Source of the DNA: Ferroglobus placidus DSM 10642
Lineage (GTDB): Archaea > Halobacteriota > Archaeoglobi > Archaeoglobales > Archaeoglobaceae
NCBI RefSeq assembly: GCF_000025505.1
Contig: NC_013849.1
Location: forward strand, 1,170,001 to 1,202,000
Direction of reading: 5' to 3'
Length of the DNA stretch: 32,000 bases
Shown: positions 1 through 26,481 of the stretch, piece by piece
How positions within the stretch are numbered: the first letter of the stretch is position 1
Layout: every line of letters starts with the position of its first letter
Notes under the pieces: generated by a model
Databases searched by the model: none
Seen by the model: only the letters and a program-made list of their open reading frames with translations
What the model was told of the DNA's origin: nothing
Translations under genes and position numbers: made by a program

Positions 1-1689
1 TTCTGGGCGGGCTCTGACGGTTCTCTTTTGCTCTGGGCGGCAATTCTTGCCGGATATTCAGTTGCTTTCTTAAGACTCGAGAAGAAAGACGCTCTAACAG
101 CATTATCCATGGCTGGGATAATGGGTGTGCAAACCTTTTTCCTCCTACTTCTTTCTACAGTCGCAAATCCGTTCAAAGAGCTGAATTTCTTCCTGCAAGA
201 CGGAATCGGTTTGAATCCTCTCCTTCAAACTCCAGAAATGGCAGCACATCCACCTACTTTATTCATGGGATACGCTGGAGCGGCTGTGGTTTTTTCCTTA
301 GCCATAGCAGGGGTATATCTTGCAGAGGACAGATGGGTGATAAGAGGGAGGAAGTGGATAGTCTTTACGTGGATTTGGTTAACGCAGGGGATATTCTGGG
401 GGGCGATATGGGCGTACAAGGTTCTTGGCTGGGGTGGATACTGGGCTTGGGATCCAGTTGAAAACTCTTCACTACTTCCTTGGCTTACGCTTTCAGCTCT
501 AATGCACAGCATTATGATTCAGGAAGCGAGGAGAGCTATGAAGCTTTGGAACATCCTGTTAGCTTTTGCAACCTTTGAATTCGTCATTCTCGGAACGTTC
601 ATAACGAGGAGCGGCGTTATAAGTAGTGTTCACGCTTTCGGGCAGAGTGGACTCACAGCTCCATTCGTTTCCTTTATGCTGGCAGTTCTCATCTTAACAC
701 TTTGGCTAATCTACGAGAGAGGGGAATACATAAGGAGTGAAGACGTCGTTGAAAGTTCTGTATCGAAAGAGGCAACTTTCCTCTTCAACAACCTGATTCT
801 CGTAGCCTCTGCTATGACTGTTTTCTGGGGAACAATATTTCCGCTGGTAAGTGAGGGGTTAACTGGTTATAAGGTAACGATAGGTCCTCCCTTCTACAAT
901 CAGGTTATAACCCCCCTCGCTATAGCTTTAATGATACTCCTCGGCTTGTGCATAGCCTTTCCTTGGAGAAAGAGCGCCGGAAAGGACCTCGCGAAAAAGC
1001 TTAGAGTGCCATTTGTAGCTTTTTTAATCGCCTTCTCAGCATCACTCGCCCTCAAGCTTAAAATTGAGATGGCTTTAGCGTTGGCGATTTTCTTCTTCTC
1101 TTTAACAACTCACATTCAACAGTACATCCAAGACACAGTCGCTTTCAGCAACGAGTACAAGAGTAAAAGTTATCTGAGAGTTATTTTGAGGAGAAGGAGA
1201 AGGTATGGAGGATATACTGTCCACTTAGGTTTGCTGCTGGTTTTTGTTGGAGTAGCCGGAAGCGTTTACGATCAGACGTTTGAGAACGTTAAGCTCGAGT
1301 TAAATCAGCCGAAGAACATCGGAGAGTACACGTTCGTGTACAGGGGACTGAAGTTCGAGGACACACCCCTCAAGACGGCTTGGATCGCTCAGGTGGAAGT
1401 TTGGAAGGGAGATAAGCTCTTAACCGTACTAACTCCGGGTATAGAGGAGTACAAAACGAGGGGGGAAGAGATAAGAAGAGTTGACGTATACTCTGAGCCT
1501 CTTAAAGACATCTACTTGATATTTAACGGTGGGGGAAAGGATTACATCTTCCTTGAAATTAAAATTAATCCCCTCGTCAACTTCATCTGGCTTGGTTGCT
1601 GGATAATGACCTTCGGCGGAATATTTGCGTTAATACCAAGGAGTTTAGTTAGCAAATACGTATTTAGCGAGAGAGGTGTCACAGCATGA
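1..1689 (+). CDS. ccmF: Cytochrome c-type biogenesis heme lyase CcmF (System I), 5'-truncated by the window edge
   Basis: The frame is open from nt 1; FWAGSDGSLLLW precedes the listed TTG at 28 and looks like a conserved CcmF block. Polytopic membrane protein. It carries the WWD heme-handling signature WGGYWAWDPVENSSLLPWL followed by a conserved His (LMHS). It overlaps the next gene by 4 nt. Confidence 0.9.
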   Translation, partial: FWAGSDGSLLLWAAILAGYSVAFLRLEKKDALTALSMAGIMGVQTFFLLLLSTVANPFKELNFFLQDGIGLNPLLQTPEMAAHPPTLFMGYAGAAVVFSLAIAGVYLAEDRWVIRGRKWIVFTWIWLTQGIFWGAIWAYKVLGWGGYWAWDPVENSSLLPWLTLSALMHSIMIQEARRAMKLWNILLAFATFEFVILGTFITRSGVISSVHAFGQSGLTAPFVSFMLAVLILTLWLIYERGEYIRSEDVVESSVSKEATFLFNNLILVASAMTVFWGTIFPLVSEGLTGYKVTIGPPFYNQVITPLAIALMILLGLCIAFPWRKSAGKDLAKKLRVPFVAFLIAFSASLALKLKIEMALALAIFFFSLTTHIQQYIQDTVAFSNEYKSKSYLRVILRRRRRYGGYTVHLGLLLVFVGVAGSVYDQTFENVKLELNQPKNIGEYTFVYRGLKFEDTPLKTAWIAQVEVWKGDKLLTVLTPGIEEYKTRGEEIRRVDVYSEPLKDIYLIFNGGGKDYIFLEIKINPLVNFIWLGCWIMTFGGIFALIPRSLVSKYVFSERGVTA

Positions 1690-2093
1690 AAATTAGATAT
1701 TTTATTATTTTCATTTTTCTTCTAATCTCAATTTCCTCAGCTTTAACAGTAGAAGACGTTGAAAAAGACGTTATGTGTGTTTGTGGCTGCGGAAAAGTCC
1801 TTGAGAACTGTGAATGCGGTACGGCGGAGAAAATGAGGAAAGAAATAGAAGGGATGATCGCAAGAGGAATGAGCAAGGAGGAGATAATATCAGAGCTTCA
1901 GGCAACTTATGGTAAGGAAGTTCTCGTAAATCCTCCGAAAGAAGGTGTTTTTCTTGGCTTGTGGTACTATCCAGTGGCGATTACAATAGCCGGAGTTTCG
2001 ATAGTTTACGCTCTTCTCAAAAGAAGGGGAGGTAAATGGTATGGTGATCCAGATGAGACGATTAACGTTGACGAAGATTATTTGGAGAGGTAG
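1686..2093 (+). CDS. ccmH: CcmH/NrfF/CycL-family cytochrome c maturation protein with a variant Cys motif
   Basis: Signal-peptide-like N-terminus and one C-terminal TM helix followed by KRR. A gap-free match, recalled from memory, to the E. coli CcmH core: ...A..MR...........G.SK.EI.....A.YG..V...PP then LW..P. The canonical LRCxxC is replaced by MCVCGCGKVLENCEC. ATGA-type overlap with ccmF. Confidence 0.75.
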   Translation: MKIRYFIIFIFLLISISSALTVEDVEKDVMCVCGCGKVLENCECGTAEKMRKEIEGMIARGMSKEEIISELQATYGKEVLVNPPKEGVFLGLWYYPVAITIAGVSIVYALLKRRGGKWYGDPDETINVDEDYLER

Positions 2094-2127: not shown

Positions 2128-2538
2128 ATGCGTGCAAGGGGTTACAAATTTTTAAACGCTCTGTACGAGATCCTCGTTTTCGCAATGGCAGTAATCGTTC
2201 TGTTACTTCTCATCGGCTACATATACTGGATTCTCACTCAAATTTACGCTTTAATTCAAACTGGAAGCAAGGAAATATTCGACAAGATAGTGATCGAAAT
2301 CCTGACTTTTCTCGTTTTAATAGAGCTTGTTAGAATATTCACCGAATACCTTGAGTTTAGAAGGGTCAGACTTTATTTGATGGCTGAACTTGCAGCCATT
2401 TTCATTCTGAGAGAGATGTTTATAATTCTCTACGCAAAGGAGTTCGACTGGCTTTCACTGATAGCATTCTCCGTCCTCATACTATCAGTTACAGCCGCGA
2501 GGACTCTCGCGATACTGTATTCTCCCCAGAAGAGGTAG
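2128..2538 (+). CDS. Small 4-TM membrane protein, tentatively PsiE-like
   Basis: 136 aa with four hydrophobic helices. The central segment LVLIELVRIFTEYLEFRRVRLYLMAELAAIFILREM resembles the PsiE-family core as I remember it. Not verified. Confidence 0.45.
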   Translation: MRARGYKFLNALYEILVFAMAVIVLLLLIGYIYWILTQIYALIQTGSKEIFDKIVIEILTFLVLIELVRIFTEYLEFRRVRLYLMAELAAIFILREMFIILYAKEFDWLSLIAFSVLILSVTAARTLAILYSPQKR

Positions 2539-3286: not shown

Positions 3287-4786
3287 ATGAAGGAAGTTAT
3301 AGAGAAAATGGTTGATGAAGCAATAGAAGCCCAGTGGGCTGACGTAAAAACCGTGGAGAAGAACAGAGGAGGAGAATTTGTAATAGATGATGTGAAGGCG
3401 TACGTAGATGTTGTAAATAAAATGAAAGCTGTTGGAGAGCAGAGTGAGGCAGTGATAAGGTTGCACGTGGATTCTGTGAACGCACATTACGAAGTACTTA
3501 GAAGTTTGACGAAAACCGTAAGACCGGAAGACGATCCATTTGTTGAACACTACCAAACCCCTGCAATTTTGGAAATACTTTACGAGGAAGATGGAAAATT
3601 CAGGGAGAGCGTGGAGAAGTTTATAGAGGAGATAGGCAGAGCCGAAGCTTTGATAGGGAAAGAAGTCGTGAGGAGGTACGGTGGTTTTTACGGACCGACG
3701 TGCGTTGTGGATTTCGCTCTCGTGCCGGGAAGCACGAGTAATGTGGTGAATCAGATTTTGAAGGGAATGGATTTACCAAAGGAGCATAAAGAAACGATAT
3801 TAGCAGCTAAATCCTGGGCTATGAACACTTCCTACGGAATTGGAGACGTTTTCGCTAAGGAAATTGAAAGAGGAGCTACTCTGAACGAAGCTCTGGAAAA
3901 AGAGATCGAAATGCTGAAGTTCATCTACGACAAACCGACCGAAGCTCAGGCAGCTCTTATGGATAGCCTGAACCACGAAAGCTTCGACGTGAGAACGTAC
4001 ATGAGCGAGTACAAAAAGAGAATGGAGGGAGCCGTTAAAAATGCTCTTGACGATGAAGTGCATTATGCAAACATCATAACAGTTCCGGCTTACTGTGTGG
4101 GAGACATAGCTCACCACATATCTCAGTCTACCTACAACATGTGCAAGGACGATGTGGTGATGGCAGTTATAACAGCTGTCAGCGAGGTCATGGAGGCGAG
4201 TTTAAGAGATAATTTAAACAAATTTGAAAACGAGTTCCACCCGTTGTGGCTCGCCACTGGCTCGACAGCAGTCGCTACAGAGTACATCCTCGAACTGGAC
4301 GGATTCACGGCTCCTATGATCGTAGATCTTCTCACAAAGAGATTCCACAATTTCGTGCAGCTTTATCCTTCCCGAGACGCTGCCGCTGAGCTGCACAACC
4401 ACGACTTCATGGACATGATATACAGGGGATGGAAGCTTCTCGACAAAGCGATGAGAGCGAAAAATGGCAGTAAAGACGAGTTAAAAGTTAAAGTAGGTGA
4501 TTTCGAGGTTAACCTCGATCCGATCCACAAGAACGAAGTTTTGATGAATCCTCAGCGCTACACGTATCCGGGCTGTGCGATAAGCGTGAGGTTTTCCGCT
4601 TTAATGAGATTGGCTGATTACCCTTGCCTTCTCACAAGCGAGCCTGTAACTGCTACGATGATGACGAATGTTATAGCCCTACATAAGAATACGCCAAACG
4701 CTCCAGCAAGAAGGTGCAAAGACTGTGCAACAGCAGCTATGATAGATGTTAGACATCAATACTGCCAGTGGAAAGAGGCTGTCTAA
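3287..4786 (+). CDS. Conserved archaeal protein of unknown function, about 500 aa (I suspect the Pfam DUF2193 family)
   Basis: Clean 499-aa ORF with an ATG start and no in-frame stops. No catalytic motif I can name. Distinctive blocks are YGGFYGPTCVVDFALVPGS, AELHNHDF and a C-terminal Cys cluster RRCKDCATAAMIDVRHQYCQW. The family call comes from memory of length and taxonomy only. Confidence 0.6.
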   Translation: MKEVIEKMVDEAIEAQWADVKTVEKNRGGEFVIDDVKAYVDVVNKMKAVGEQSEAVIRLHVDSVNAHYEVLRSLTKTVRPEDDPFVEHYQTPAILEILYEEDGKFRESVEKFIEEIGRAEALIGKEVVRRYGGFYGPTCVVDFALVPGSTSNVVNQILKGMDLPKEHKETILAAKSWAMNTSYGIGDVFAKEIERGATLNEALEKEIEMLKFIYDKPTEAQAALMDSLNHESFDVRTYMSEYKKRMEGAVKNALDDEVHYANIITVPAYCVGDIAHHISQSTYNMCKDDVVMAVITAVSEVMEASLRDNLNKFENEFHPLWLATGSTAVATEYILELDGFTAPMIVDLLTKRFHNFVQLYPSRDAAAELHNHDFMDMIYRGWKLLDKAMRAKNGSKDELKVKVGDFEVNLDPIHKNEVLMNPQRYTYPGCAISVRFSALMRLADYPCLLTSEPVTATMMTNVIALHKNTPNAPARRCKDCATAAMIDVRHQYCQWKEAV

Positions 4787-7285: not shown

Positions 7286-7603
7286 ATGGATGGGTTTCAC
7301 ATGTTTCCCTTCGGTTTTGGATTTTTCGGCTTCGGGATGATCTTCTGGTGGGTTCTCTGGATTATCGTAGCTTACCTCGTTTATCAAGACGCTGAAAAGA
7401 GAGGTATGAACGGTCTGTTGTGGTTTATTCTTGTCCTCATCCCAATGCTCGGAATAGTTTTCCTCCTCGTTTATCTTGCTGTAAGGGAAAGTAAGGCAGA
7501 GGAAGGAAAGAGCAGCGCACTCGAAATTCTAAAAGAAAGGTATGCGAAAGGAGAGATCACGAAAGAAGAGTTCGAAAGGATGAGGAGGGAAATTGAGGGG
7601 TAA
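7286..7603 (+). CDS. Small membrane protein with a C-terminal SHOCT domain
   Basis: Two TM helices, then [22 protein letters not shown], the classic SHOCT motif. It ends 5 nt before copB. Confidence 0.8.
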
Positions 7604-7608
7604 GCTGC

Positions 7609-9585
7609 ATGGAAGAACACATGCATCATGTCGAGGAGAGAAAAGCTAAGCACGAGCATAAAAAGCTGCATCACGAACACATGATGGAAGACTTCAAGAG
7701 GAGATTTCTCGCCTCAACAGCCCTTACAATCCCAATTATAATCCTTTCACCCTTCATTCAAAAAGTTTTCAACTACACTCTCGAATTTCTGGGGAGAGCG
7801 TACGTTCTTTTCCTACTTTCCTCCATCGTTTACTTCTACGGCGGATACCCCTTCTTCAAGGGATTTTTCGACGAGTTTAAAAAGAGAACCCCCGGAATGA
7901 TGACGCTAATAGCTGTTGCCATCACCTCAGCCTACGTTTACAGCTCAGCCGTAGTTTTCGGATTAAAAGGAAAGTACTTCTTCTGGGAGCTGGCGACGTT
8001 AATTGATGTTATGCTTCTCGGACATTACATAGAGATGAAATCAGTTCTCGGAGCTTCGAGAGCTTTAGAAGAACTCGTTAAAATTATGCCGTCAACAGCC
8101 CATTTAATTAAAAACGGTGAAATAAAGGAAGTTCCGGTTGAAGAGCTGAAACCCGGAGACATCGTTCTTGTCAAACCCGGAGAAAAGATTCCGGCTGATG
8201 GAATTGTGATAGAAGGAGAGAGTTACGTGGATGAATCTATGCTAACTGGAGAGAGCAAGCCTGTTTTGAAAAAGCGAGGAAAGAAGGTGATAGGAGGAGC
8301 GATAAACCTTGAAGGTTCTTTGAAGGTGAAAGTAGAAAAAACTGGAAAAGACACGTACCTCAGCCAGATAATAGAGCTCGTTAAAGCTGCTCAGGAGAGT
8401 AAGTCGAAAACTCAGGATTTGGCAAACAGAGCTGCTTTTCTACTCACGATCATCGCTCTAACAGCTGGATTCATAACCTTCACAACCTGGATGTTCTTTG
8501 GAAAGGATTTGGCTTTCGCTGTTGAAAGAGCAGTTACGGTGATGGTCATCTCCTGCCCTCACGCGTTGGGGTTAGCAATTCCTCTCGTCGTGGCAGTTTC
8601 AACCTCTTTAGCTGCTAAGAACGGCTTACTCATAAGGAACAGGCAGGCTTTCGAGAGAGTCAAGGAGGTTGAAGCCGTAGTTTTCGATAAAACCGGAACT
8701 CTAACTGAGGGTAAGTTCGGCGTCGCTGATGTTTTCACTTTCAGCAAAAACGAAGATGTTCTGAGAATTGCCGCAAGCATAGAGGTGAATTCCGAACATC
8801 CGATTGCAAGAAGCATAGTTGAAGAGGCAAAAAAGAGAGGAATTGAGCTTTTGAAAGTTGAAGAGTTCAAAGCAATTCCCGGAAAGGGTGTTGAAGCTAA
8901 GGTTAACGGGGAGTTCTACAGAATTGTAAGCCCCGGATACTTAAAAGAGGCTGGTATTGACGTCGATATCCCAGAAGAGGCTATAAAGGGGAAAACCGTC
9001 GTTTACCTCGTCAAGGATAGTAAGGTGATCGGAGCGATCGCTTTAGCAGACAAAGTTAAGCCGGAGTCTAAAGAGGCTATACAGAAGCTGAAGGACATGG
9101 GGATAAAGTGCATGATGCTTACCGGAGATAGCAGAGTTGTGGCTGAAAAAGTTGCCGAAGAGCTTGGACTGGATGAGTTCTTCGCCGAAGTTTTGCCCCA
9201 CGAAAAAGCGGAGATAATAAAGAGACTTCAGGAGAAATTCGTCGTTGCGATGGTTGGAGACGGAATTAACGACGCTCCAGCTTTAGCTCAGGCTGATGTC
9301 GGAATCGCTATCGGAGCCGGAACGGATGTTGCGATAGAGACAGCAGACATTATTCTCGTTAGAAGCGATCCAAGAGATGTGGTGAGGATTATAGAGCTTT
9401 CGAAGAAAACCTACAGAAAGATGTTGCAGAACTTGCTTTGGGCTACTGGCTACAACAGCGTTGCTATACCTTTGGCGGCGGGAGTTGCTTACAGCATCGG
9501 CGTACTACTTACTCCAGCCGTAGGAGCGGCTTTAATGTCTTTAAGCACGGTGATAGTAGCTGCAAACGCCAAACTTCTGAAATAA
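7609..9585 (+). CDS. copB: Heavy-metal (copper) P1B-type ATPase, CopB type with a His-rich N-terminus and CPH motif
   Basis: N-terminal MEEHMHHVEERKAKHEHKKLHHEH. Also TGES, the transmembrane CPH (VISCPHALG), DKTGTLT, and the GDGINDAPAL hinge. Confidence 0.95.
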   Translation: MEEHMHHVEERKAKHEHKKLHHEHMMEDFKRRFLASTALTIPIIILSPFIQKVFNYTLEFLGRAYVLFLLSSIVYFYGGYPFFKGFFDEFKKRTPGMMTLIAVAITSAYVYSSAVVFGLKGKYFFWELATLIDVMLLGHYIEMKSVLGASRALEELVKIMPSTAHLIKNGEIKEVPVEELKPGDIVLVKPGEKIPADGIVIEGESYVDESMLTGESKPVLKKRGKKVIGGAINLEGSLKVKVEKTGKDTYLSQIIELVKAAQESKSKTQDLANRAAFLLTIIALTAGFITFTTWMFFGKDLAFAVERAVTVMVISCPHALGLAIPLVVAVSTSLAAKNGLLIRNRQAFERVKEVEAVVFDKTGTLTEGKFGVADVFTFSKNEDVLRIAASIEVNSEHPIARSIVEEAKKRGIELLKVEEFKAIPGKGVEAKVNGEFYRIVSPGYLKEAGIDVDIPEEAIKGKTVVYLVKDSKVIGAIALADKVKPESKEAIQKLKDMGIKCMMLTGDSRVVAEKVAEELGLDEFFAEVLPHEKAEIIKRLQEKFVVAMVGDGINDAPALAQADVGIAIGAGTDVAIETADIILVRSDPRDVVRIIELSKKTYRKMLQNLLWATGYNSVAIPLAAGVAYSIGVLLTPAVGAALMSLSTVIVAANAKLLK

Positions 9586-18077: not shown

Positions 18078-18728
18078 ATGCACTACAGCGAACTCGTCAA
18101 GATCCTTTCGTCAGACGACGTGAGGAATCTCTTTATGTACTCCTCTTTTAAATACTCATTTTCGATTTTTACCGACATGCTCAAAGAAGTTAAAAGTAGA
18201 GTGAACCTGATAGTTTTCGGAGAAAGCCTTCAAAGAAAGCTCAAAAAATCCTACGAAAACTACGTTAAAGCCCATCCAGAAGATAGAAAACTTTTCGACG
18301 ACGTTAAGATTTTCAAAGTTGGGAAAAACAACGAAATACCTTTTGGAGAGCTCTATTCGAGCGTTATAATGACCTCTCCTTCAGAAATAGGCGTTTCTCT
18401 TCTAAATTTCCTTGAAGGAATGGATAACGAGCACGTATTCGTTTTCGGGGCGACGACTCTAATGGAACTTTTTGAGGACGACGGCTACGACATGATCGTA
18501 CAAATGTTCGATTACGTTAGGAACAGCTCCTTTCACGTCTTCGTTCCCGTCGAAATCGAAAACTACGATAAAAGCGTCTTCCTCAAGAAGTACTTCGACC
18601 ACATAATAAAGCTCAGAAACAGCGGGGGAAAAGTTCTGTTAGAGGTCAAAAACAACGTCTTTTCAACTTTCCCGGACTACGTTTCCTTCGAACTAAGCCT
18701 AATAGACGGCAAGTTTAAGGAGGTTTAG
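18078..18728 (+). CDS. Hypothetical protein
   Basis: Clean 216-aa ORF with an ATG start. I recognise no catalytic motif. See the finding on possible degenerate KaiC/RecA-like features. Confidence 0.5.
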   Translation: MHYSELVKILSSDDVRNLFMYSSFKYSFSIFTDMLKEVKSRVNLIVFGESLQRKLKKSYENYVKAHPEDRKLFDDVKIFKVGKNNEIPFGELYSSVIMTSPSEIGVSLLNFLEGMDNEHVFVFGATTLMELFEDDGYDMIVQMFDYVRNSSFHVFVPVEIENYDKSVFLKKYFDHIIKLRNSGGKVLLEVKNNVFSTFPDYVSFELSLIDGKFKEV

Positions 18729-19890
18729 TCTCAAATATTTCCTCCTCTTTTAGATAGCAGCTCGGATCGTCCCCCCACAAATCCCCTTTTCTTAACGCTC
18801 TCAGCCTAAAACCACCGCAGTACAGCTTGTAATTGCACCTTCCACACCTCTTACCGCTTATGTACTTGTGCTTTTCCCTGAGCTTTTTTAGCAGTTCGTC
18901 TTTTGGATTCAACCAAATTTCGCTGAACTTCTCCTCCCTAACGTTTCCAACTGCGTAATCCCACCAGAACTGATTGGGATGGACGTTTCCGTACATGTCT
19001 ACGTCAGCAATTCTAAAACCGCTGTTGTCTCCCCCTCTGATCTTCAAAAACTCGAAGGCATCTTCAGCGAGATTTTCGTCCATCTCCTTTAGCTTCAAGT
19101 AAAAGAATACGCCGTCGGCTGGATTGTCTACCGTTAAAATCTCTACTTTTTCTCTCTCATCCCTAAGCTCGATAGCCTTTTCGAAGAGCCAATCCATTAG
19201 CTCTCTTCTCGCGTTGTTGTCTATGTCTATTTTGAAATCCGCCCTGCCCGAAGGAACGAGGTGGTAGAGGCAGAATCTCGGAATTTCGTGTTCAACAGCA
19301 AGATCCAAAAGCTTCGGCACCTCTTCGTAGTTGAGCTTCGTAACGGTAAACCTTATTCCGGTCAATATTCCCTCCTCCTTCGCATTGAGCAATCCAGATA
19401 ACGCCCTCTTAAAAGCTCCCTTCAATCCTCTGAATTCATCGTTAACAGCTTCGCTTCCGTCCAAGCTTACTCCAACGTAGTCAACTCCAGCCTCCTTCAG
19501 CTTTGCAGCGACGTCTTCATCGATAAGCGTTCCGTTTGTTGAGAGGGAGGAATGAATTCCCTTACTTTTCGCATAAGAGATTAGCTCGTAGATGTCTTTC
19601 CTCATTAAAGGCTCTCCACCGCTGAACAAAATAACCGGCACTTTAATAGCGGCTAAGTCATCAATCATCATCTTGGCTTCTTCCGTTGTAAGCTCTTCCC
19701 CGTTCAAGGTTTCTGCAGCGTAGCAGTGAACGCAGTTTAGGTTGCATCTTGCTGTGGAGTTCCACACGACAACCGGAATAGGTTTTTTGCTCGCCTCTAC
19801 GAGAGCCTTCGGTATCCTTTCTTTGCTCTTATAGGTAAGCTTTTCCGATACGGTCGCTTCTCCAGCCACCATCTTGCTAAGCGCTATCAT
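18715..19890 (-). CDS. Radical SAM/SPASM protein of the NirJ/AhbC/AhbD type (alternative heme biosynthesis family)
   Basis: The N-terminal MIALSKMVAGEATVSEKLTY...PVVVWNSTARCNLNCVHCY resembles NirJ/Ahb enzymes as I recall them. SGGEPL is present. C-terminal CGRCNYKLYCGG. ATGA overlap with the upstream Fe-S gene. Confidence 0.65.
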   Translation of the reverse strand: MIALSKMVAGEATVSEKLTYKSKERIPKALVEASKKPIPVVVWNSTARCNLNCVHCYAAETLNGEELTTEEAKMMIDDLAAIKVPVILFSGGEPLMRKDIYELISYAKSKGIHSSLSTNGTLIDEDVAAKLKEAGVDYVGVSLDGSEAVNDEFRGLKGAFKRALSGLLNAKEEGILTGIRFTVTKLNYEEVPKLLDLAVEHEIPRFCLYHLVPSGRADFKIDIDNNARRELMDWLFEKAIELRDEREKVEILTVDNPADGVFFYLKLKEMDENLAEDAFEFLKIRGGDNSGFRIADVDMYGNVHPNQFWWDYAVGNVREEKFSEIWLNPKDELLKKLREKHKYISGKRCGRCNYKLYCGGFRLRALRKGDLWGDDPSCYLKEEEIFETKPP

Positions 19891-20948
19891 CTTACCAGCT
19901 CCGAAAGCAGCATGATTATATCCTTAACAGCTACGTCTCCCCTTTTAAGGTTTCTGTAGCAGAAGGGACAAGCCGAAAGAAGCAGATCGGGGTCGACTCT
20001 CTTAACCTCCCTGATCCTCTCCCCCATAACCATCATGGAGAAATCCTTGTAGCCCGCTCTAACTCCCCCTCCACCTCCGCAACAAAAGCTTTCGTTTTTT
20101 ATCCTCTCAAGCTCTTTAAGCTTAGCCACCTCTTCTATTAAAGCTCTCGGCTCTTCGTAAACTTTCATGTGCCTTCCGAGGTGGCAAGGGTCGTGGTAGG
20201 AGACTGTCAAATCCGTTTTTTTAAAATCTAATTTGTGAACGTTTTCGAACAAAAACTCGGTGATGTGCATAACATCAGCGCCGACGCTCCCGAACATCTT
20301 CTTGTAATCTTTTTTAATCGTCCTGTAACATCCGGGACAGCTCGTCACGATCAGTGATGCTCCGGTTTTTTCAACCGCCTCCCTTATGCTTTCGAAGCCC
20401 TTTCTTGCAATATCTTCCCCAAGCCCAACCCTTAAAGCCGTCGATCCGCAGCAGTGTTTTGCTTCAACAAGGTAATCGACTTTAAGATAGTCGAGAAGCT
20501 TTTTCGTAGCTTCGAAAATCTCTCTTTCCTTGTATAAAGCTGTGCATCCCGGATAGTATAAAGTTTCTACCTCTCTATACTCTTCTATTAACGGCACACC
20601 TCTGTAGGGGTTTCCGTACCCTTTTATTACCTCGTAAAGCTCCATGTGCTTTTTTACAAAGTATCCGGAGGAAATAAACTGCTTTCTAACCCTCTCTATC
20701 TCCTCAGTAAACTTTACTCCAGAACTGCAAATGTTCTCGCAATACCCGCAAGTCAAGCAGGTGAAAACGCTCTTCTTCACCTCCTCATCGAGTTCGAAAA
20801 GCTGAGAAAGAACGATTCTACCCCTCGGGGAGTAATGCTCCCAGTAAGTAACGTTATAAGTTGGACAGACAGTCAAGCAAATTCCGCACTTCGTGCAGTT
20901 CACGAAAAAATCTTTTCTGGGTTCATAATATTCCGCTCGTCCAAGCAT
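19887..20948 (-). CDS. Fe-S oxidoreductase, GlcF/HdrD-like (2x[4Fe-4S] ferredoxin motifs plus two CCG domains)
   Basis: CTKCGICLTVCP, CLTCGYCENIC, HCCGS, PCHLGRH, FCCGGGGG and CPFC. An alternative GTG start at 20903 gives a GTGA overlap with the upstream stop, instead of a 49-nt overlap. Confidence 0.85.
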   Translation of the reverse strand: MLGRAEYYEPRKDFFVNCTKCGICLTVCPTYNVTYWEHYSPRGRIVLSQLFELDEEVKKSVFTCLTCGYCENICSSGVKFTEEIERVRKQFISSGYFVKKHMELYEVIKGYGNPYRGVPLIEEYREVETLYYPGCTALYKEREIFEATKKLLDYLKVDYLVEAKHCCGSTALRVGLGEDIARKGFESIREAVEKTGASLIVTSCPGCYRTIKKDYKKMFGSVGADVMHITEFLFENVHKLDFKKTDLTVSYHDPCHLGRHMKVYEEPRALIEEVAKLKELERIKNESFCCGGGGGVRAGYKDFSMMVMGERIREVKRVDPDLLLSACPFCYRNLKRGDVAVKDIIMLLSELVR

Positions 20949-22129
20949 TCTTTCAGCCTCCTAAAATTAATTTTCTCCTTCAATCCTCTTCCGTGCTCCC
21001 CGTAAACAACTTTAGAGAGCTTACTTTCCAGAATTTTTTCAAAGTTGAGAGCCTGTTCAAGAGACTCGGCTATCACCGCCGGATGAAAGTTGCAGGTGTC
21101 GAGGTGGGAGTAGAGAAAAACCTCCACTCCCGTCTCTCTTTCAACCTCTCTGACGACCTTTTCAAATTCGACAGCCTGAGAGAAAGGAACGACGTAATCG
21201 TCGGCTAAGTAAAACCGCTTTTTTCCCCCTACGCTCAACGATCCGACTGAACTTCTAATCTTCCAGAAGTTTTCCTCGTCTTTTCCCCTCAACTCGTCAA
21301 ATTTCCTCAAAACCTCTTCAAGCTTTTTGTTTTCCGAAAAATCCTCCACCGCTATTACGTGTCCACCATATCCAAGCCTTTCGGCAACTTTTTCATCCGC
21401 ATACTCCACGCATTCTGGAAGAAATTTGATAAGCTTTCTTGCAACTTCAAAAGCCTCTTTAAAGCTCTCAAACTCGGAAATCAGAGTTCTTTTACTTTCC
21501 GGTAGAGGGAGCAGCCTTAAAGCAACTTTCGTTATTATACCAAGAGTTCCTTCGCTTCCGACGAAGATGTTGTTCGGGAAGGGAGGGGATTTGTGAGTGT
21601 AGTAAAAGTTTCTGAAAATTTTTCCATTCGGTAAAGCTACTTCGATTCCAGCAAGGTAATTAGATATAGATCCGTATTTTAAAGCTCTTTTTCCGCTTCC
21701 ACCTACAGCAATAAAACCTCCTATTGTAGCCACCTCAGCGCTTCCCGGCTCGGGTGGAAGAAAGAGTCCTCTTTTCGCAGCTTCTTTTTTTATTTTTCCT
21801 ATTACTGCTCCGCTTTCAGCAACGCAAATCAAGTCCTCCTCTTTAATTTCGATATCGTTCATCTTTTTTGTATCAACGACGATCCCGTTGAAAGGTAAAG
21901 CTCCTCCTTTCGTGCCTGTTCCAGCTCCGCGAGGGTAAATCTTAACTTTGTACTCGTTGGCAACTTTAATAACCTCAGAAACCTCTTCTGCCGTCTCGGG
22001 TCGAACAACAGCCAAAGCGTTGCCGAGAAAGGGTGATGCGTCAACGGAATAGATGGAAAGAGCTGAAGAGCCGTAAAGAACGTCGTTTTCTCCGACAATA
22101 TTGATAAGTTCGTCGATTAACTTATCCAC
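20900..22129 (-). CDS. FAD-binding (PCMH-type) oxidase, GlcD/D-lactate dehydrogenase family
   Basis: GTG start. The FAD-binding domain contains VVRPETAEEVSEVIKVANEY and PRGAGTGTKGGALP. The C-terminal FAD-oxidase_C-like part contains HLDTCNFHP. Confidence 0.85.
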   Translation of the reverse strand: MDKLIDELINIVGENDVLYGSSALSIYSVDASPFLGNALAVVRPETAEEVSEVIKVANEYKVKIYPRGAGTGTKGGALPFNGIVVDTKKMNDIEIKEEDLICVAESGAVIGKIKKEAAKRGLFLPPEPGSAEVATIGGFIAVGGSGKRALKYGSISNYLAGIEVALPNGKIFRNFYYTHKSPPFPNNIFVGSEGTLGIITKVALRLLPLPESKRTLISEFESFKEAFEVARKLIKFLPECVEYADEKVAERLGYGGHVIAVEDFSENKKLEEVLRKFDELRGKDEENFWKIRSSVGSLSVGGKKRFYLADDYVVPFSQAVEFEKVVREVERETGVEVFLYSHLDTCNFHPAVIAESLEQALNFEKILESKLSKVVYGEHGRGLKEKINFRRLKECLDERNIMNPEKIFS

Positions 22130-23421: not shown

Positions 23422-23442
23422 AACTAACTTAAGTTTCGAAAG

Positions 23443-23451
23443 TATTTAAAT
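23443..23451 (-). promoter_or_regulatory. TATA box (minus-strand ATTTAAATA) of the gar1-tfb promoter
   Basis: Lies 22-30 nt upstream of the gar1 GTG at 23421. A purine-rich GCGAAAG sits immediately upstream, at the BRE position. Confidence 0.55.
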
Positions 23452-23746
23452 CTTTCGCAACATATTTATTTGAGTTTTTATTTTAGTATTTAAAGGTTTT
23501 TGTGGTGCCAGTAATTCACAATGTAACACACGTTCATTCTAGGATAACACGCCTTTTGACAGTGCACTACACACGGATTCATCCAATTGCTTGTTAATTT
23601 TCCGAATTCCTTAACTTCTTCGTCGTGTTTGCAAATCTCTTAATCGAAATTTAGGCTTTTTTGCACTCTTTTTGGGTGACAGAATGGTTTAGCGATTGAG
23701 ATCAAGGTTTGGAAAAGTATTTGAAAGCTGGGAGATAGTTGTAAGT

Positions 23747-23803
23747 ATGGCAAAAATTATCGAGGCGATATACGAAAATGGTGAGCTCGTTACCTCTTCT
23801 TAA
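23747..23803 (+). pseudogene. Orphan, truncated DUF104/AF2212-type antitoxin fragment
   Basis: MAKIIEAIYENGELVTSS* matches the hallmark N-terminus M.K(I/V)IEA(I/V)YENGV.KPL of the small archaeal antitoxins that pair with PIN toxins. A +1 frame continues PLLKRIRKNLQRE*. There is no PIN gene downstream. Confidence 0.4.
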
Positions 23804-23873
23804 AAGAATTCGAAAAAACTTGCAAAGAGAATAAATAATCCATTGAGAGTGTCTTGAGTTAGCACTCGAAACA

Positions 23874-24386
23874 CTAAGCATTCTCACCACTCAAATCAAA
23901 CTTAAACGAATGGAACCTCAACACCATGCCTATCAAGTAAAGGGATGATGAGAGGTAAAATAAAATCAGGTGCGTTGTTCCTTCAAACGTTGCAAAGTCG
24001 AGAACGAAGAGAGCTATGCCGGCGTGAATCAACGTGCTGGGAAGGTTCTTTCTGATGTAAGCCGTGAGGAGAGCGATGGATAGAGTGGACGAGAATGCCA
24101 GAGCAAAACGGTAATCGAAGCTTGCAAGCAAAAAAGCAACTCCAGCAATAACCAAGCTGCTTGCTGCAACATTTCTTCTGATTTTTCTCAAAGTGCAAAT
24201 CGGAATGAGAACAATCGCCAAAAAGACTATCGGCGAAGAAATTCTGTTCATCATGTCGACGTAGCTCTGATACTCAATCCTCCTCCACTCTTCGGAGTAA
24301 TTCAGCGAGTAATAGACTATTCCGAAAAAGGCTACAGCCGAGAATATCAAAAATATTGCTATCGTAAGCTTCATAAGATCATCCAT
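23874..24386 (-). CDS. 5-TM membrane protein of unknown function, last gene of the hdrCB-WWD operon
   Basis: 170 aa with five hydrophobic helices. Intramembrane His residues occur in LIHAGIALF and TTHLILFY. It overlaps the upstream gene by 8 nt. Confidence 0.6.
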   Translation of the reverse strand: MDDLMKLTIAIFLIFSAVAFFGIVYYSLNYSEEWRRIEYQSYVDMMNRISSPIVFLAIVLIPICTLRKIRRNVAASSLVIAGVAFLLASFDYRFALAFSSTLSIALLTAYIRKNLPSTLIHAGIALFVLDFATFEGTTHLILFYLSSSLYLIGMVLRFHSFKFDLSGENA

Positions 24387-25173
24387 AGCCGTGCACCCCC
24401 GGAAGTAGATAGGTCATTAGGTAAGTTGCCACGAGAGATCCAAAGCCTGCCAAGTTTATTTCCCGGTAGAATTTTCCGCCGATCCTCGCGTGGAGGTATG
24501 CGGTGTAAATTACCCATAGCATTATCGACATCGCTATCTTGGGATCCCACCACCAGTTCTCTCCCCAAGCAATTATCGCCCACGGATAACCGAAAATTAA
24601 GCCGAGGGTTAAGAAGAGGTAGCCGTTTTTAGCGAAATCGTACTCGTTCTTCTTAGCTAAGGAAAGAGCGAAGGAGTGCAGAAGGTAAGCGTAGGCTAAG
24701 AAGAGCAGGGGCGGATGAATCCACATGTAAGGGGAGTTGTAAAAGTAAGCGGCTCTTGCAGCGTAGTAATCAATGTAAGCAGGATTGAAAAGTTCAAGCT
24801 CTCTCCTCAGGTTTGGCAGAGGATTAGAAGGGTTCTGGACGAATATAACGAAGAGAAGCATAATAAGTAAAGCTATTTTCGAAAATTCCTTTCCTTCCCT
24901 AACTTTCAGAAGAAGTACTGCGGAGAGAAAAAACCAGAAGAAGAGCTTTTCGTTTTCTATCCAGAACGGAGGGTAAAACCTGATCACGTAATTTCCGAAG
25001 GCTACGAAGGTTTCCCGCCAGTAGAGGACCTGAACGAAAACGAGATACAAGAAGGAGAAAACCACAGTTCCAACAAAAAACTTCTCGTACTTTTCACGAA
25101 AAATCGAAAGGATCAAGAGGAGAAGGGAGAGAAAGAGAAAAGCGTTCAGCAGTGAAAAAAGCTCGTACGTCAT
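24379..25173 (-). CDS. Heme-handling protein of the CcsA/CcmC/CcmF family (cytochrome c assembly protein, WWD domain)
   Basis: AWGENWWWDPKIAMSIMLWVIYTAYLHAR carries the WWD signature and the distal His. The upstream MWIHPPLLFLAYAYLLH carries the proximal His. About 8 TM helices. ATGA overlap with hdrB. Confidence 0.8.
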   Translation of the reverse strand: MTYELFSLLNAFLFLSLLLLILSIFREKYEKFFVGTVVFSFLYLVFVQVLYWRETFVAFGNYVIRFYPPFWIENEKLFFWFFLSAVLLLKVREGKEFSKIALLIMLLFVIFVQNPSNPLPNLRRELELFNPAYIDYYAARAAYFYNSPYMWIHPPLLFLAYAYLLHSFALSLAKKNEYDFAKNGYLFLTLGLIFGYPWAIIAWGENWWWDPKIAMSIMLWVIYTAYLHARIGGKFYREINLAGFGSLVATYLMTYLLPGVHGYG

Positions 25174-25973
25174 GATTCACCCATCAGCAGCTTTTCGTAC
25201 AGCTCCTGAGTAATTATTTCGTGAGCTTCCAATCCCGCTTCATCAACATCCATTCCCATCGCTATAGCCAAAAGCTGCGCGTAGTGAATTGCTGGAATTC
25301 CAAAGAATTTTCCTTCTTTTTCGAGTTCTTTTTGCCCAGTGTCGAACTGAAAGAGGCAGAGGGGACATATGACAACTATCGCATCGACCTCAGCTTCTTT
25401 AACTCCTTCAAGCTTCATCTCCAGAAGCTCTCTCGCAACTTCCGTTGCGGCAGCTCTAACTCCCCCTCCTCCACCGCAGCACATGTATTTCGTTCTGTAA
25501 TCTACGCTTTCAGCACCTACAGCTTTGATCAGCTCGTCGAGAATCTTCGGTCTTTCTGCAGAATCAATTCCCTTCTTTTCAGCCGGTCTGAAGAAGTGAC
25601 AGCCGTAGTGGGCTGCCAGCCTTAAGTTAAGCTTCTTAGAAATTTTCTTCCTTATTTCTTCAACTCCCACGTCTCTGTAAAGAAATTCGGCGAAATGTCT
25701 AACATCCTTCCCGATCTCGTTTCCAACTTCGAGAAGAGTCGTGAAGCATCCGTTGCAAGCGGTCATTATCGTTTCGTCGCTTAAGTTCAAGTTTCTCTCC
25801 GCCACTTCCCTCCACATTTCTTCGCTCACGGATTTCGTAATCGCCGGAGCTGGGCAGCAAGAAGACCCTTCGAGAGGAGATATTTCAATGCCGAGAACGC
25901 TGAAAACGTAGTATACGCTTTTCTCGATCCCCGGATACCTGTTGTGGATCATGCAGCCGGGGAAGAACTTCAT
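25170..25973 (-). CDS. hdrB: Heterodisulfide reductase subunit B-like protein (two CCG domains)
   Basis: MKFFPGC...SSCCPAPA...CNGC and HYGCHF...MCCGGGGG...CPLC. ATGA overlaps on both sides. Confidence 0.85.
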   Translation of the reverse strand: MKFFPGCMIHNRYPGIEKSVYYVFSVLGIEISPLEGSSCCPAPAITKSVSEEMWREVAERNLNLSDETIMTACNGCFTTLLEVGNEIGKDVRHFAEFLYRDVGVEEIRKKISKKLNLRLAAHYGCHFFRPAEKKGIDSAERPKILDELIKAVGAESVDYRTKYMCCGGGGGVRAAATEVARELLEMKLEGVKEAEVDAIVVICPLCLFQFDTGQKELEKEGKFFGIPAIHYAQLLAIAMGMDVDEAGLEAHEIITQELYEKLLMGES

Positions 25974-26401
25974 CTCACAACACTCCCCAAGTGCTTTTCA
26001 ACAATTCTCCTAACTTCTTCTCTCGCTTTCTCATCGAACTGGGCATGGTATATCGGCAATCCGAGCTTTCTTCTCAGCTCCACATGTTCTTCTCTTGCCG
26101 GAACCAAAGCAGCTTTGTTCATCAAAAACGTGAAAGCGTTACTCAACCTTCCGGGCAAACCTTTATTTTTCACGAGAGTTCTCCTCGCTTCTATTAATGT
26201 GTCGGTAATTTCTATTCCCCGAGGACACCTTTCCTGACAAGCGTAGCACGTTACGCAGAACCAGATCTCGTCTCTCTCCTCAACCTTTTTTCCCGAAGAG
26301 ATAAAATCTGCTATTATCCTTCTCGTGTTTAAAGCGGTTATTCTTCCAGACGGACAGCTTGCTATGCAGGTTCCGCACTGAATGCACGAATTCAAGTTCA
26401 T
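25970..26401 (-). CDS. hdrC: Heterodisulfide reductase subunit C-like protein (2x[4Fe-4S])
   Basis: CIQCGTCIASCP and CVTCYACQERCP. I prefer the ATG at 26401, preceded by AGGAAGG. The track start, TTG at 26461, would remove the promoter space. Confidence 0.8.
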   Translation of the reverse strand: MNLNSCIQCGTCIASCPSGRITALNTRRIIADFISSGKKVEERDEIWFCVTCYACQERCPRGIEITDTLIEARRTLVKNKGLPGRLSNAFTFLMNKAALVPAREEHVELRRKLGLPIYHAQFDEKAREEVRRIVEKHLGSVVR

Positions 26402-26447
26402 CCTTCCTAATTTCCTCAGCCCACTATTAAACTGTATCGAGAAAGTG

Positions 26448-26456
26448 TTAAATAAA
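26448..26456. promoter_or_regulatory. A/T box TTAAATAAA in the hdrC/nmd3 divergent spacer
   Basis: Lies 26-34 nt upstream of the nmd3 ATG at 26482 (leaderless spacing). It lies 47-55 nt upstream of the hdrC ATG at 26401, which has an SD-like AGGAAGG. Confidence 0.4.
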
Positions 26457-26481
26457 CTCAAACATCAACGTTATAATTCGG

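Follow-up and report, generated by a model that had tools for sequence, protein, structure and literature searches.

Overlapping hdrC-hdrB genes and a predicted split CcmF-type gene pair in one operon of the archaeon Ferroglobus placidus

A stretch of 32,000 nt from Ferroglobus placidus DSM 10642 (NC_013849.1, positions 1,170,001 to 1,202,000 of the forward strand; hereafter the window, in whose own numbering all positions are given) carries four overlapping minus-strand genes, Ferp_1394 to Ferp_1391, in the order hdrC-hdrB-gene 3-gene 4. Gene 1 (hdrC-like, Ferp_1394; 25970..26401) encodes 143 amino acids (aa) from its ATG and two [4Fe-4S] ferredoxin motifs, and gene 2 (hdrB-like, Ferp_1393; 25170..25973) encodes 267 aa with two CCG domains. 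Gene 3 (Ferp_1392; 24379..25173), the product of which is 100% identical to the F. placidus protein named 'cytochrome c assembly protein', encodes 264 aa in eight helices and would represent the N-terminal half, bearing the WWD motif, of a split CcmF, the C-terminal half of which would be supplied by gene 4 (Ferp_1391; 23874..24386), encoding 170 aa with about six transmembrane (TM) helices. Consecutive genes are joined by ATGA stop/start overlaps at 25970-25973 (gene 1/gene 2, sequence GAGATGAAG) and 25170-25173 (gene 2/gene 3, sequence TCATGACG), and by the 8-nt overlap ATGGATGA at 24379-24386 (gene 3/gene 4, context CTATGGATGATC). The four open reading frames (ORFs) and three overlaps reported in an initial annotation of the window agree exactly with the ORF list and with the letters at the junctions, and the single operon predicted from them holds.

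The limits of this operon were examined at both ends. For gene 1, the stop codon was confirmed and the start codon was revised. The maximal ORF, initiated at a TTG at 26461, comprises 163 aa and would bring the gene to only 20 nt from the divergent NMD3 gene. In a related locus (L001), the 20 codons matching this putative extension hold an in-frame stop in spite of the conservation of the DNA sequence, and hdrC as called there encodes 144 aa, in line with the 143 aa of gene 1. An N-terminal extension of HdrC from the TTG was ruled out by this in-frame stop and by the conservation at the DNA level, and the ATG at 26401, which is preceded by a Shine-Dalgarno-like AGGAAGG, is most likely the start. 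Because the frame is broken in L001 while the DNA is conserved, the stretch upstream of the ATG is best read as a promoter element. The divergent hdrC/NMD3 region (26402..26481) contains a conserved element of ~35 nt with two TATA-like boxes (TATTTAACACTTTCTCGATACAGTTTAATAGTGG, 26425-26459), preserved as DNA, whatever the frame, in the window and in loci L008, L096 and L001, and it is probably a bidirectional promoter. At the opposite end, T-runs (GTTTTTTCG and TTCTTTT) are found just past the gene 4 stop, where a 450-nt gene-free gap begins, and may constitute a terminator, placing the probable operon end on the minus strand at 23795..23873. The gap itself (23422-23873, between gene 4 and Gar1) is unusually long for a compact genome, holds just a dubious 62-aa ORF (23702-23890) and returned no match in an Rfam scan.

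Profile searches upheld the HdrC and HdrB assignments of the first two genes. Gene 1 matches Fer4_8 (Pfam, 9.5e-12), with both CxxCxxCxxxCP motifs present, and scores 118.6 bits, under the cut-off of 160, against the NCBIfam HdrC model TIGR03290; gene 2 contains two CCG domains (Pfam, 9.1e-33) and scores 303.7 bits, under the equivalog cut-off of 345.15, against the HdrB model TIGR03288. In the alignment of gene 2 the 10 Cys expected for two noncubane [4Fe-4S] clusters are all there, with C39, C40, C73, C76, C125, C165, C166, C203 and C206 invariant and C7 nearly so. Judged by sequence, both genes encode complete proteins of the HdrC/HdrB type. Ferp_1393 lacks the ~30-aa insertion found in methanogen HdrB. 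A docking insertion in HdrB was considered and rejected, the alignment of Ferroglobus HdrB containing no clade-specific insertion of this kind. No hdrA was found in the operon, in its flanks or beside orthologous hdrCB pairs.

Gene 3 was confirmed as a WWD-family protein by a match to Cytochrom_C_asm (PF01578, 55.9 bits versus a cut-off of 29.9) and by its WWWDPK, IHPP and YLH motifs; its initial placement with CcsA/CcmC-type proteins gave way on account of its collinearity with CcmF and its TM-His. When the gene 3 family profile was compared with proteins of solved structure, just CcmF (6zmq, 2.8e-8) and CcsBA (7s9y, 5.8e-8) were matched. Alignment to these two structures nominates H153 as P-His1, H228 as TM-His1 and H261 as P-His2, and superposes the WWWD at residues 207-210 on the WWD motif of both; H153, WWWD and H261 are invariant among 70 sequences of the family. 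The AlphaFold 2 model of gene 3 has a mean confidence score (pLDDT) of 93, and its sole significant match in a Foldseek search of the PDB is CcsBA (E = 5.9e-4), with CcmC far weaker. Among curated models the closest is that for CcsA (TIGR03144), against which gene 3 scores 57.6 bits for a cut-off of 187.6 and genuine CcsA proteins score 194-288 bits; the corresponding values are 27.5 bits versus 569 for CcmF/NrfE (TIGR00353) and 19 bits versus 186 for CcmC (TIGR01191). CcmC has no transmembrane His ligands (PMC10663686), the Archaeoglobales CcmC motif WG[ST][FY]WNWDPRET (PMC4600277) is unlike the WGENWWWDPKIA of gene 3, and no ccmAB genes adjoin gene 3 among the ORFs of the window. The identification of gene 3 as a CcmC orthologue was ruled out by its TM-His, its 19-bit score and the differing WWD motif, and the scenario in which it would be the only CcmC orthologue of the organism does not apply on the first two of these grounds. 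The residues W220 and Y185 of gene 3 align with two CcmF positions at which CcsBA has Ile and Leu; transferring residue numbers between the proteins suggests that these are the proposed electron-conduit Trp positions of CcmF. Residue 48, in the second helix ('FHxxIY', window ~25030-25032), is a nearly invariant His across the gene 3 family, replaced by Gln in the four HdrCB-linked gene 3 sequences of the Ferroglobus clade and by Asn in one other; this residue would lie near the outer leaflet and may pair with a conserved His, H139, of gene 4.

The partner encoded by gene 4 is more divergent. It has no family match in Pfam or NCBIfam, CcmF_C and ResB included, its family profile has no match among PDB sequences, and its structure model (pLDDT 58) is too poor for a fold search. 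The initial description of a five-helix membrane protein is retained as to the membrane and amended as to the number, which is probably six, at low confidence. Gene 3 relatives were sought in a collection holding one genome per bacterial or archaeal species, and 87 loci were fetched for neighborhood comparison. In 80 of these 87 the gene 3 homologue is followed directly by a gene 4 homologue, and the two genes usually overlap by 4 or 8 nt. Within the gene 4 family, H121 is conserved in 76 of 77 sequences and C64 in 75 of 77, H139 is also conserved, and so is a 'FEKEG' loop, probably cytoplasmic, that is deleted in the HdrCB-linked clade. C64 ('LCIPKR', window ~24195-24197) would sit at the cytoplasmic end of the second helix; it aligns with the Cys of 'GLCIA' in the C-terminal domain of another CcmF encoded in the window.

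The relationship of both genes to CcmF became visible only in profile-profile comparison. Aligned with hhalign against a small CcmF alignment, the gene 3 family falls on CcmF columns 9-334 (probability 99.65%) and the gene 4 family on the next CcmF region, columns 363-542 (probability 93%, E = 3.5e-7), so that the two are collinear with the longer protein. The segment of gene 4 that holds H121 ('GSSLLHLG') falls on CcmF 'GGYTVHLGLLL'. Full-length CcmFs contain exactly four invariant His, and because H121 aligns with the fourth of these, it is assigned as the TM-His2 candidate. Hydropathy and the positive-inside rule suggest that H228 of gene 3 and H121 of gene 4 lie near the cytoplasmic face. 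On these alignments, genes 3 and 4 together are a 434-aa miniature split CcmF with the four canonical haem ligands. A reading of the pair as CcsA with a miniature CcsB, at first favored by the NCBIfam and Foldseek results, was dropped after alignment had shown gene 4 to be collinear with the CcmF C-terminal half and to match its TM-His2.

Gene 3 belongs to a discrete family of 40 representative clusters at E≤1e-30, after which scores drop sharply to ordinary CcsA and CcmF/NrfE proteins; among those 40 clusters, no fusion ('Rosetta stone') protein was found in which gene 3 is combined with gene 4 or with an Hdr protein. The family has been named before: Chadwick 2022 (PLoS Biol, PMC9012536) applies 'CcmF3' to the larger of two genes forming an apparent split CcmF in ANME archaea and Ferroglobus, and the file Fig12A.faa of that work contains, as entry 17442812, a sequence identical to gene 3, which branches with ANME-2a/2b in the CcmF tree. 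In the portions of that source covered here, which were not searched for Hdr terms, the family appears as a figure-legend remark, and no mention of His ligands, of the small subunit or of an upstream hdrCB was found. As far as those portions show, the gene 3/4 module had thus been noticed earlier and not analyzed. The claim that the module is undescribed consequently stands for its pairing with HdrBC, no description of which was found in the literature, and falls for the WWD pair itself; no mention of Ferp_1391 to Ferp_1394 was found either. Canonical Ccm genes occur elsewhere in the F. placidus genome (PMC4600277, PMC4429474). Also confirmed was a System I CcmF within the window (28-1689, plus strand; 553 aa, with Cytochrom_C_asm and CcmF_C domains), which overlaps a CcmH-family gene (Ferp_1364; 1686-2093, plus strand). 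The two correspond to the published duplicate CcmF (Ferp_1363) and to one of its flanking CcmH genes, Ferp_1362 and Ferp_1364, an arrangement regarded as unusual for archaea (PMC4600277). F. placidus, in sum, has a full System I and two extra CcmF paralogues.

Across the species-representative collection, gene 3 relatives were identified at 297 loci, the best 80 of which belong to Methanoperedens, ANME-2/Methanocomedens, Methanosarcinaceae, Hydrothermarchaeota, an Archaeoglobaceae metagenome-assembled genome (MAG), Actinomycetota and Desulfocapsaceae. The Archaeoglobaceae MAG (39% identity) carries the gene 3/4 pair without Hdr. Elsewhere, gene 3 homologues overlap unrelated upstream genes, namely those for SfsA (4 nt), a CBS/ACT protein (1 nt) and a PF01877 RNA-binding protein (1 nt), and a start/stop overlap is therefore weak evidence of partnership. 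Multihaem (CxxCH-rich) cytochrome genes occur within 6 kb in just 2 of the 87 loci, and the idea of a lyase dedicated to a neighboring cytochrome was rejected on this count. Several recurrent neighborhoods were recorded. In four Methanosarcinaceae MAGs (L066 3818-9394, also L055, L058 and L076), the order is hdrE-like, hdrD, DUF116, DUF116, CcmF3 large and CcmF3 small, with hdrED ~2 kb upstream of the pair; this same-strand order is kept in all four though HdrD identity drops to 64%, and it represents a second, less tight link between Hdr genes and the module. In two Methanoperedens MAGs (L015 7713-11664, also L038), hemA and two further genes run convergently to the CcmF3 pair, with hdrCBA after them at ~3.5 kb downstream of the pair, and the position of hemA recalls the hemA-hemX linkage of Firmicutes. 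In two Actinomycetota MAGs (L005 5341-5919 and L053), the CcmF3 pair has a divergently oriented neighbor that encodes a thioredoxin-like (PF13098) protein, a placement resembling that of ResA/CcmG-type genes in cytochrome c maturation loci.

The arrangement with hdrC-hdrB immediately upstream of gene 3 was found only in the Ferroglobus clade: in the window, in a Ferroglobus sp. MAG (L008; gene 3 identity 82%, same overlaps) and in L001/L009 (one contig) and L002, which share one gene 3 protein (P0004; 64% identity, same overlaps). A further locus, L096, is a fragment of a linked hdrCB locus. The adjacency is hence not confined to one genome. The linked cases make up three sequence-distinct lineages and trace to one ancestral event, since all of them have the flanking NMD3/Trm5 synteny. 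The idea that the Ferroglobus clade has evolved faster since the fusion was considered and rejected, as its identity to other lineages (37%) is the same as that among those lineages. Outside the clade, hdrCB orthologues (L088-L094, L097; 55-71% identity for HdrB) are stand-alone pairs, in Geoglobus acetivorans as well as at five other distinct loci. In the three genome and four metagenome loci of adequate length, among which two pairs of records are near-identical, no WWD gene, gene 4 homologue or HdrA was found within 5 kb of hdrCB. The notion of a conserved HdrBC-WWD system could not be sustained on this distribution: the pairing is limited to the Ferroglobus clade, and both modules stand alone elsewhere.

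The explanation that we favor, by a little more than even chances, is a lineage-specific operon fusion, in which an orphan HdrCB has been joined to a CcmF3 split synthase without an obligatory complex. Two self-sufficient modules are proposed because both occur stand-alone elsewhere. Genes 3 and 4 would form a miniature split CcmF-type cytochrome c synthase of the CcmF3 clade, gene 3 giving an external WWD haem site (H153, H261) and the inner-leaflet H228, and gene 4 giving the second inner-leaflet His, H121. Between them, H228 and H121 would bind a stable b-haem within the membrane, which would reduce the haem at the WWD site before thioether formation, as proposed for CcmF. As a third CcmF paralogue, this module would probably serve a subset of the roughly 30 c-type cytochromes of the organism. 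Genes 1 and 2 would represent the orphan HdrC/HdrB pair of Archaeoglobales, a soluble cytoplasmic iron-sulfur oxidoreductase of the thiol/disulfide type, which in Geoglobus and other relatives presumably functions with neither HdrA nor a membrane partner encoded next to it. Both pairs would have been joined head to tail in the Ferroglobus lineage and be co-transcribed from the promoter shared divergently with NMD3. An obligatory HdrCB-CcmF3 complex is probably lacking, and co-expression of the two modules is compatible with the absence of a physical complex. If the adjacency is incidental in this way, the finding amounts to a refined annotation for a family that the literature has noted before.

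Several observations weigh against the operon-fusion explanation. The three overlaps are kept across lineages at 64% (gene 3) and 48% (gene 4) identity, a retention compatible with selection for co-translation, and the linked clade has changes of its own in the CcmF3 module, namely H48Q in gene 3 and the loss of the 'FEKEG' loop in gene 4. Two further lineages have Hdr-type genes at a distance of 2-4 kb from the gene 3/4 pair, no other partner is visible for the orphan HdrCB, and HdrB/C/D-type proteins characteristically dock on membrane haem-b subunits. As regards the synthase itself, genes 3 and 4 score under the cut-offs of the curated CcmF and CcmF_C models, Foldseek puts CcsBA first for gene 3 rather than CcmF, and both haem binding and synthase activity of the pair are predicted properties.

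Part of this evidence also bears on the main alternative, a functional coupling of the two modules. HdrCB could be the dedicated cytoplasmic reductant of the split CcmF, docked on its cytoplasmic face, and we regard this as a realistic possibility, at about one chance in four in our judgment. HdrB would oxidize a cytoplasmic thiol or take electrons from another donor, the two [4Fe-4S] clusters of HdrC would relay them to the inner-leaflet b-haem (H228/H121), and the aromatic relay Y185/W220 would pass them to the WWD-site haem, which would thus be kept ferrous until joined to apocytochromes. The reductant of the TM-haem of CcmF is stated to be unknown (PMC10663686). The operon with its three conserved overlaps recurs in three sequence-distinct lineages, and both TM-His are placed by positive-inside topology near the cytoplasmic face, where they would be within reach of the HdrC clusters. 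The residues W220 and Y185, absent in CcsBA, occupy what appear to be the conduit Trp positions of CcmF, and H48Q and the loss of the putatively cytoplasmic 'FEKEG' loop are specific to the linked clade. HdrD/DsrK/HmeD-type proteins, moreover, pair with membrane b-cytochromes. Against these points, none of which is decisive, the modules are stand-alone in nearly every other lineage, the adjacency arose once, within a block of shared synteny, docking-specific features are missing from HdrB and HdrC, and the overlaps are non-specific, being seen with unrelated upstream genes as well.

The same complete HdrCB, with all its cluster ligands, and the two haem sites predicted across the membrane in the gene 3/4 pair would also fit an energy-metabolism complex of the HdrDE/DsrMK kind, in which a WWD-type di-haem subunit would replace the NarI-type cytochrome b and would connect a cytoplasmic disulfide with the quinone pool or with extracellular cytochromes instead of serving cytochrome maturation. 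The same-strand hdrED genes that precede the gene 3/4 pair by ~2 kb in the four Methanosarcinaceae MAGs point in that direction. The WWD/P-His site is, however, intact as in synthases, the gene 3/4 family is without any Hdr in most of the genomes that carry it, evidence of a quinone site was not found, and no candidate disulfide substrate was identified in the analysis; F. placidus is not known as a methanogen or a sulfate reducer. We consider such a complex improbable. Slightly less probable again is that genes 3 and 4 form a HemX-like device for haem sensing or homeostasis rather than a synthase, with HdrCB unrelated to it. HemX of Firmicutes, a PF01578 protein, controls glutamyl-tRNA reductase levels in an organism that lacks c-type cytochromes (PMC5801465), hemA adjoins the gene pair in the two Methanoperedens MAGs, and multihaem cytochrome genes are nearby in so few of the 87 loci. 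The hemA adjacency is nevertheless restricted to those 2 of 87 loci, which are closely related, with none in Ferroglobus; the four CcmF His ligands and the WWD motif, the hallmark of synthases, are kept; and the named loci and proteins come mostly from lineages rich in cytochrome c.

Compared with known systems, the gene 3/4 pair has the WWD motif, P-His1, P-His2 and the TM-His pair in common with CcmF/CcmFH of System I (T. thermophilus 6ZMQ, E. coli), as well as the collinear order of gene 3 and gene 4 in profile alignment and aromatic residues at the mapped conduit positions. CcmF is, however, a protein of about 650 aa encoded by one gene, versus 434 aa in two genes here, and no CcmH or CcmE gene adjoins gene 3/4. 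The split CcmF of Methanosarcina acetivorans (CcmF2, the N-terminal half, and CcmF1, the C-terminal half; eLife 2022, PMC9084895) is likewise encoded by two adjacent genes, with the WWD half catalytic. That protein belongs to another clade (the CcmF1 cluster in the Chadwick nomenclature) and is the genetically shown main synthase, whereas gene 3/4 is an extra paralogue. CcsBA of System II (H. hepaticus 7S9Y), the best structural match to the gene 3 model, follows the same four-His logic, in which one TM-His comes from a separate subunit; it differs in that gene 4 lacks a ResB domain or large external domain, and gene 3 has W/Y where CcsBA has I/L. With HdrDE, DsrMK and HmeCD the locus would share, by analogy, cytoplasmic ferredoxin-like and CCG modules beside a membrane protein able to hold haem b near the cytoplasm. 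The membrane subunit here is of the WWD/CcmF type and not of the NarI/HdrE type, HdrC and HdrB are separate whereas HdrD is fused, and the pairing here is known from gene order in one lineage.

As a compact variant of CcmF with about 430 aa, the gene 3/4 family occurs mostly in archaea (Methanoperedens, ANME-2, Ferroglobus) in which extracellular electron transfer is served by giant multihaem cytochromes. Were HdrCB indeed its reductant, it would be the first dedicated reductant identified for a CcmF-type synthase, Hdr-like proteins would gain a membrane partner of a new type, and a long-standing question of cytochrome c biogenesis would be addressed. The occurrence of a complete cytoplasmic iron-sulfur relay and a minimal two-subunit CcmF in one operon makes a testable candidate in a small, thermostable system.

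Additional features of the window include a PsiE-family gene (2128-2538, plus strand) that follows the CcmF-CcmH genes; in L001, a PsiE gene (7311-7724) comes directly after the hdrCB-CcmF3 cluster. A gene for a DUF2193 protein, an archaeal family, is located at 3287-4786 on the plus strand (full-length match, 910 bits), 1.2 kb from the CcmF-CcmH-PsiE group. A second Hdr-related cluster, on the minus strand at 18715-22129, encodes a radical SAM/SPASM protein (18715-19890), an HdrD/GlcF-like protein with Fer4 and CCG domains (19887-20948) and, overlapping the latter, a GlcD-like FAD oxidase (20900-22129); it is probably a 2-hydroxyacid dehydrogenase, unrelated to the hdrCB-CcmF3 operon.

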